Assembly (NCBI RefSeq): GCF_003334335.1
Contig: NZ_QOWQ01000134.1
DNA length: 965 nucleotides
Source of the DNA: Escherichia coli
GTDB lineage: Bacteria > Pseudomonadota > Gammaproteobacteria > Enterobacterales > Enterobacteriaceae
Strand: one strand, 5' to 3'
The notes beneath the pieces are model-generated. The model saw nothing but the letters and a program-made list of their open reading frames with translations. It did not search any database and was not told the origin of the DNA. The translations under genes were made by a program, and so were the position numbers. The first letter of the stretch is position 1. Every line of letters starts with the position of its first letter. Below, in pieces: positions 1 through 965 of the stretch.

Positions 1-965
1 GTGATTTCATTGCGGGTTTCTGTGATGGTGGTCTGCATTTCCGCCATCTCGTCCTTCAGCTGACTGTTGTCAATCTCTGCCCACAGCGCCTCTGCCAGAT
101 GCAGTTTTCCTATTTTTTCCCGAAACAGCCCCAGATACCCTTCTGCATCATTGCTGGCCCGTCCACTGGCTTCAACAAAAGCAGATTTACCCACCAGGTT
201 GACGCTGCGCACATAAAACCAGAAATCCTTTCCGGGCTTAATGTGCGGACCGGAGACACTCCACTGACTGCCGGTCCCCAGATAACGGGCAGAGGTTTCC
301 ACCTGTGCGGCGTCTGCAATTTTTGCCTCCGAAAACCAGAACTCAAACTGCACCGTCGGGTCATACACCGCAAGACGCGGGACTGCCGTTATCTGAAAAT
401 ACCCCGGCGTCAGTTCAACACCGGCAGGCGCTGCCGGTGCGTTAATCCGGAACGTGGTGGTGGCGGGTTCGCCCTGCTGGCCATAGCTGTTAATCGCCCT
501 GACCGTCAGGGTGTATTCCCCGGGAGGCAGGCCACTGAAACGGTGCTCCGTATCGGCAGTGATGGCGGTGGTCAGCAGGCGGCTGTTCTCACCGCTTCCA
601 CTGGTCAGGCGCAGACTGAAGCGCACGCCCTTCACCACCCGCGGCGTGTCCCATTTCGCCAGCGCCAGATACTGGCCGTCAGCTGCGCTCACCTCCACCG
701 TCAGGTGCTGCACTGCCGGTGGGATAACGCTGTTCAGGGTGCCTGACTGCGGCTCAAAGCGGGCTCCGTTATCCACAATGGCTTCTTTTTCCGGTACGTG
801 CTGCACTGCCGTGATGGCAAAGGTGCCGTCCGTGTTTTCCCGGATGGAGACACAGCGGAACAGGCGACGGCGCAGTGACGGCAGGGAGAGTCCCCACACC
901 CCGTATGTCTCCACACCATCAGGCAGGGTACTGACCTGTATCCGGTCCGGCGCGGGGTGTGCGGT
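1..965 (-). CDS. J: Host specificity protein J / tail tip attachment protein (lambdoid gpJ family), internal fragment, partial at both ends
   Basis: Minus-strand frame with codon boundaries at + positions 3..965 is open for all 321 codons (positions 1-2 are a partial codon). Translation N->C, reading 965->3: [321 protein letters not shown]. Long stretches match my recollection of the central part of phage lambda gpJ (e.g. [71 protein letters not shown]). The protein is not low-complexity, unlike the R/C-rich products of the track ORFs. No start or stop lies in the window, so the gene extends beyond both edges. Confidence 0.93.

Follow-up and report, generated by a model that had tools for sequence, protein, structure and literature searches.

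The window analysed here, a stretch of Escherichia coli DNA of 965 nt, contains part of a single gene. In an ORF check, the minus strand gave the only frame without stops over its whole length, and the encoded fragment resembles the tail-tip protein J of lambdoid phages. Residues 8–300 align to residues 543–837 of lambda gpJ (PDB 8iyk_J, E 3.8e-125), the best phage match is the 'tail tip host specificity protein J' of Escherichia phage PhiR5_1 (99.1%), and the same J type carries the gpJ annotation in E. coli genomes. With this homology and with two J-type Ig/FNIII domains followed by a helical shaft (Table 1), the window is part of a lambda-type J, as the sequence-only reading had already said. 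The domain order is the one found in lambda gpJ (PDB 8IYK/8K35/8XCG; Pfam PF24421 Ig_J and PF24489 Ig_J_second), in which the AHS domain sits below the FNIIIs (PMC11101478).

Window-like J is common: a set of 5,426 complete E. coli genomes yielded 6,754 such places, spread over 2,056 genomes. Related O157:H7 alleles (88% identity) show the tail-module order L-K-I-J-lom-stf, of which the window itself covers part of J only. An ORF on the plus strand (99–746, 215 aa, with an ATG start) was considered as a second gene and rejected, as it is antisense to the strongly supported J frame and has no support of its own; it is best read as a by-product of coding-strand composition. Many phage J alleles match the window at 80–93% over coding nt 1–638 and then not at all at megablast sensitivity. 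The matching ends near window position 328 (coding nt ~638, residue ~213, in VQFEFWF), which suggests a mosaic recombination boundary inside FNIII-2 near that residue.

Table 1. Features of the 965-nt window, with residue numbers of the encoded J fragment
Feature	Position	Strand	Basis
ORF, 321-aa internal fragment of lambdoid tail-tip / host-specificity protein J	1..965	-	Only stop-free frame; homology
Pfam Ig_J (FNIII-1), residues 74–177	435..746	-	Pfam, E 2.7e-41
Pfam Ig_J_second (FNIII-2), residues 179–280	126..431	-	Pfam, E 1.6e-38
Start of the alpha-helical shaft, after FNIII-2, residues 274–320	6..146	-	AF2 helix 274–320; PMC11101478
Repeat copy 1, upstream on the coding strand, (A)CG GCA GTG CAG CAC = T52 A53 V54 Q55 H56	798..811	-	
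Repeat copy 2, (C)CG GCA GTG CAG CAC = P83 A84 V85 Q86 H87	705..718	-	
Spacer, V57 to the first base of the P83 codon, the HDIV-to-FNIII-1 linker	719..797	-	

The gene contains an exact 14-mer, GTGCTGCACTGCCG as read on the plus strand, at two sites that are 93 nt apart from start to start. The sequence-only reading had described this repeat and its phase correctly: its exact length is 14 nt, the flanking bases differ (g/g versus c/t), and the two copies lie in frame and in the same phase of the minus-strand J ORF, 31 codons apart, each encoding the tetrapeptide AVQH (Table 1). One repeat and the spacer together form a unit of 93 nt, or of 96 nt in Sp11-type alleles. The description of such a 14-mer as improbable by chance holds in part. 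Of 5000 shuffles that preserved the dinucleotides of the window, 0.26% contained an exact direct repeat of at least 14 nt, so that the repeat is modestly surprising for a single window, but such repeats are to be expected now and then when many windows are scanned. When the protein was kept fixed and synonymous codons were redrawn from the usage of the window, both sites were identical over 14 nt in 2.8% of draws, and 52% of amino-acid shuffles contained a repeated tetrapeptide. What surprise there is lies in the identity of the codons alone, and it is modest. AVQH is one of three repeated tetrapeptides in the window fragment. The other two, AITA (residues 50 and 134) and ITAV (residues 51 and 192), both overlap the first AVQH motif, and illustrate how common such repeats are in the beta-rich J.

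The positions of the two motifs were compared in an AlphaFold2 model (24-sequence alignment, mean pLDDT 81). The model has strands at residues 36–43 and 49–55, a short helix at 58–61 (PEKE), a loop extending to residue 85 and a strand at 86–95, and pLDDT is below 50 at residues 59–78. This predicted layout agrees with the lambda structure, in which beta25 comprises residues 570–578 (PMC10721106), corresponding to window residues 35–43. By the model and the published structure (PMC10721106), motif 1 is the C-terminal end of the last beta-strand of the HDIV hub, and strand A of FNIII-1 begins, at its N-terminus, with motif 2. The motifs exactly bracket the HDIV–FNIII-1 linker, which corresponds to the 31 codons that separate them. 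The suggestion that AVQH may be a strand-initiating motif thus holds for motif 2, whereas motif 1 ends a strand, and the two motifs do not occupy equivalent structural positions. In lambda gpJ, TAVQH (587–591) and PAVQH (619–623) likewise flank the HDIV–FNIII-1 linker, but the spacing is 32 codons, with a one-residue insertion in the loop.

This linker is described in the lambda tail-tip structure papers (PMC10721106, PMC11101478), and cryo-EM work proposes that its elongated form allows the FNIII strings to come apart and swing outward when LamB is bound (PMC11101478); the Ur-lambda paper (PMC12617516) contains nothing on the HDIV–FNIII linker. The baseplate hub protein pb3 of phage T5 shares the hub–FNIII–FNIII architecture, and its FNIII string repositions at tail opening (PMC10721106, PMC11101478). 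The likeness to pb3 is one of architecture, as published, and AVQH at these sites is a feature of the lambda clade alone. In an alignment of 24 diverse homologues, H56, K60 and G67 are invariant down to 26% identity, and both K60 and G67 lie within the linker spacer. The conserved core H-x-P-E/N-K...D/E-x-G, at the start of a linker regarded as 'flexible', suggests that this part makes a specific contact within the structure and is more than a passive tether.

Given the in-phase spacing and the identical tetrapeptide, the two sites could be viewed as what is left of an old duplication within the gene, in which a unit of about 31 codons was copied and each AVQH starts one copy; a small ancient duplication had been among the earlier proposals. 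However, the 26 residues that follow each AVQH share only 3 identities, and the local BLOSUM62 score of the two units is 9, below the shuffle mean of 14. The structures of the units also differ, with a helix plus loop in one and FNIII strands A and B in the other. In 66 family representatives, site 1 never departs from [AC][VLI][QE]H with xP[EN]K after it, whereas AVQH at site 2 is confined to the lambda/E. coli clade and gives way to P-V/I-E-N/H/R (PVEN/PVEH/PIER) in homologues at 47% identity or less. A duplication origin is scarcely credible on these data, and the proposal is not sustained.

At the nucleotide level, the identical codon usage of the two motifs is a property of individual alleles, and not the conserved feature that it might seem to be from the window. 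Among 138 distinct related J sequences, the 14-mers are identical in only 16. The best 80 viral-contig relatives (at least 90% amino-acid identity) include 17 with identical 14-mers and 45 with GCG versus GCA at the Ala codon, and a second, less biased sample (120 loci listed) yielded 9 of 112. In lambda-type alleles from viral contigs the sites differ at 2–4 of the 14 nt, so that there is no 14-nt repeat; the commonest pair is ACC GCC GTG CAG CAT and CCA GCG GTG CAG CAC. Across the 138 sequences, site 1 shows wobble variation in three of its five codons (ACG/ACC/ACT, GCA/GCG/GCC/GCT and CAC/CAT), and site 2 in four of its five (CCG/CCC/CCA, all four Ala codons, GTG/GTA and CAC/CAT). The only near-fixed codons are GTG and CAG, which are also dominant in the window gene (15 of 25 Val and 13 of 13 Gln). 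No conservation beyond coding constraint was found, and the repeat does not behave as a functional nucleotide-level element. The exact repeat of the window is a single synonymous base away from the commonest allele state, which has GCG at site 1 and GCA at site 2.

The nucleotide identity of the two sites is considered coincidental because homologues show divergent codons. The sequence-only reading had tied such a conclusion to codon divergence combined with an absence of indel variation between the motifs; the codons do diverge, but indels between the motifs exist. Intragenic gene conversion, in the form of short-patch templated repair that keeps the AVQH sites identical, would account for the presence of GTG CAG at both sites in nearly all alleles, and for identical sites in certain lineages, whether their spacing is 31 or 32 codons. 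However, the gene as a whole favours GTG and CAG, and the variable wobble positions do not covary: the commonest state has a different Ala codon at each site, which is the pattern of independent drift. We give this possibility almost no credence.

Both motifs are present in all 192 informative viral-contig alleles, where they lie 31 or 32 codons apart, the difference being EPQSG versus DG[DE]QSG in the loop. Larger indels between the repeats were sought with 40-nt junction probes (13 + 14 + 13 nt), which the wild type matches over only 27 nt, less than the 28-nt megablast seed. As these probes need a 28-nt exact word, the counts of deletion alleles given here are lower bounds. In two strains of E. 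coli O157:H7 the deletion probe had 100% matches, of which two lie in strain 2571 and one in F6321. The deleted J genes in these strains are intact ORFs of 1127 aa with the junction FAITAVQH-LTVEV. Their undeleted parent is the Sakai Sp11-type J, found with at least 99% match in at least 278 records, which contains the same exact 14-mer twice (14/14), 96 nt apart. Relative to this parent, the O157 deleted alleles show a single 96-nt gap, equivalent to window positions 705–797, and no mismatch within 300 nt on either side.

The chromosomal distribution of these alleles differs between the two strains. In F6321, the J at 1.87 Mb is full-length and the one at 2.84 Mb is deleted (loci L254 and L202), the latter in a prophage whose tail and head genes look complete, while in strain 2571 the corresponding prophages, at 1.87 Mb and 3.06 Mb (L201 and L253), both carry the deleted form. 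Apart from the deletion, the four J copies of the two strains differ by a single base. The second deleted copy in 2571 may be due to an independent deletion, to gene conversion between the prophages or to an effect of assembly polishing. An exact-protein look-up of the deleted O157 J returned only the two NCBI O157 assemblies.

A further probe, carrying the commoner C form of the repeat, detected one more genome, that of the bovine strain OkiPb01713 from Okinawa. The protein junction is the same as in the O157 alleles. The closest full-length relative found, from strain 2013C-4974, is identical to the OkiPb01713 J across about 1 kb save for a 96-nt gap bounded by the repeats. In this relative the repeats, 96 nt apart, agree at 13 of 14 positions, and the Okinawa crossover therefore falls within a block of 9 exactly matching nt. 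The OkiPb01713 prophage is decaying, with a frameshifted lom and an IS66-family element adjoining J. Because the Okinawa J is only 84.7% identical to the O157 deleted allele, and the junction variants differ (C in Okinawa, T in O157), the deletion appears to have arisen at least twice independently, in two unrelated J backgrounds.

In total, the deletion was found in 4 gene copies in 3 of 5426 genomes, compared with about 6,750 J places. As assembled, three genomes carry deletion alleles with both ends falling precisely on the repeats. The check for natural J indel variants that had been proposed thus yielded 96-nt deletion alleles, derived from parents with 32-codon spacing, and the prediction that the repeats are a substrate for in-frame deletion is borne out by natural alleles that lack exactly one repeat and the spacer.

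These alleles bear on the view that the repeat is pure coincidence, an oddity of one allele with no biological consequence. The absence of the exact repeat from most alleles is in keeping with that view, as are the frequency with which synonymous redraws reproduce the identical codons and the roughly coin-flip occurrence of a repeated tetrapeptide. However, deletion end points that match both repeats in two unrelated J backgrounds contradict it already, unless each of the three assemblies is in error here, since chance deletions would not fall there twice. A coincidence without consequence is accordingly judged improbable.

Duplication alleles, the other product of slippage that had been envisaged, were not found: there was no match to the degenerate duplication junction PPAVQH-VPEK in viral contigs, and none to the duplication-junction probe in E. 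coli genomes. The degenerate deletion junction AITAVQH-LT was not detected in 2.9 million viral contigs, for which the wild-type control gave at least 120 matches, and the deletion probe had no match in the phage collection. A degenerate 26-nt deletion pattern gave 49 matches in metagenomes (L204–L252), which were examined as candidate J genes; all are unrelated sequences and none is J. These matches are mostly from soil, and about 45 of them share one highly conserved segment, most with stops in the frame concerned, so that the real gene of this segment probably uses a different frame or lies on the opposite strand. No published account of the J deletion emerged from a literature search.

The explanation that we regard as very probable is that the repeat has no function of its own, that it results from the recurrence of AVQH together with codon choice, and that its only consequence is mutational, in the form of short-homology deletion. 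AVQH occurs twice in lambda-clade J, first where HDIV ends and again where the first fibronectin-type domain begins, and both copies are written in the commonest E. coli codons, GTG, CAG and CAC. In a minority of alleles, including that of the window, the Ala and Thr/Pro codons happen to share their wobble bases as well. The resulting direct repeats, 93–96 bp apart, are a substrate for short-homology deletion, which could proceed through slippage at replication or single-strand annealing. The product keeps one repeat and loses the spacer in frame, joining the last HDIV strand straight to strand A of FNIII-1 with the whole linker gone.

Efficient RecA-dependent exchange usually needs about 23–27 bp. 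As to the pathway of the deletion seen here, we infer that slippage or annealing is likely, and RecA independence is probable because the homology is only 9–14 bp (compare PMC5426353). The repeat is a weak, recurrent site of short-homology in-frame deletion. It is described as weak because there are only four deleted copies among about 6,750, and because the deletion is absent from viral contigs and the phage collection.

Because the deletion takes away the invariant K60 and G67, and in view of what has been published on the role of the linker, we infer that a linker-less J would be defective, and would be tolerated in resident prophages. Against such a defect stand the intact ORFs of the O157 deleted alleles and the complete-looking tail and head genes of the F6321 prophage. 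The same observations, combined with the in-frame and recurrent nature of the deletion, might be taken to indicate a selected contingency switch at the DNA level, yielding a useful linker-less J with, for example, an altered tail-tip state. However, the nucleotide sequence of the repeats is not conserved, and deletion alleles are very rare, with no reciprocal duplication allele and hence no reversibility. The deletion also removes two family-invariant residues, and the Okinawa copy is in a prophage that is itself decaying. A selected switch is consequently considered highly unlikely. It is likewise very doubtful that linker-less J represents a working variant, with its tail tip locked in or biased toward another conformational state, and that lineages with the exact repeat are pre-disposed to generate it at low frequency.

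Short-homology deletion, as favoured here, has precedents in E. coli. Deletion hotspots between short direct repeats were reportedly found in lacI by Albertini and colleagues in 1982. In the RecA-independent short-homology deletions of E. coli (comparison: Azpiroz & Lavina 2017, PMC5426353), as in J, there are two short repeats of which one copy is retained, the other copy and the spacer are lost exactly, and events recur at one site. Unlike in those E. coli deletion systems, the events described here are known as natural prophage-gene alleles only. Contingency loci and phase-variable receptor-binding genes are similar in that a repeat in a host-interaction gene leads to an in-frame length variant. 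However, J has two copies of a 14-mer and no tandem tract, the repeat is unconserved, reversible gain is unseen, and the variant amounts to about 4 in 6,750 gene copies. The phenomenon is an ordinary short-homology deletion site.

For general genome biology, these observations carry very little weight: they add one more example of precise deletion at short repeats, and an example of how codon bias and a recurring tetrapeptide create direct repeats. For the study of gpJ, the natural intact J genes that lack exactly the HDIV–FNIII-1 linker represent ready-made linker-deletion mutants. Such alleles could serve as a direct probe of the tether model, in which the FNIIIs swing out at tail opening on LamB binding (PMC11101478).

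Other variants were observed in the same part of J. In one IMG/VR contig (L187, near position 6664, after window residue 66), a lambda-type J reads ...VPEKEAIVD joined to IENTPDGMQSQVLLAADRIAMVNP..., with an apparent in-frame loss of about 320 codons that includes both FNIII domains and the helical shaft; no suitable full-length partner for mapping its deletion end points was found among the other loci. A T5 run at window positions 786–790 (A5 on the coding strand) lies in CCG GAA AAA GAA, which encodes PEKE. Two viral-contig alleles shift frame at the PEK(E/K) homopolymer and a third about ten codons downstream, and one of the frame-shifted alleles regains the frame before PAVQH. These alleles may be genuine pseudogenes or may reflect sequencing errors.

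The deleted J genes are named by PGAP as 'phage tail tip domain-containing protein' or 'TipJ family phage tail tip protein', and not as gpJ (L201, L202 and L256). Some full-length J alleles also receive a generic name, so that the name alone is no marker of the deletion. Annotators should be aware that deleted J genes bear generic names and that PGAP leaves the deletion unmarked.
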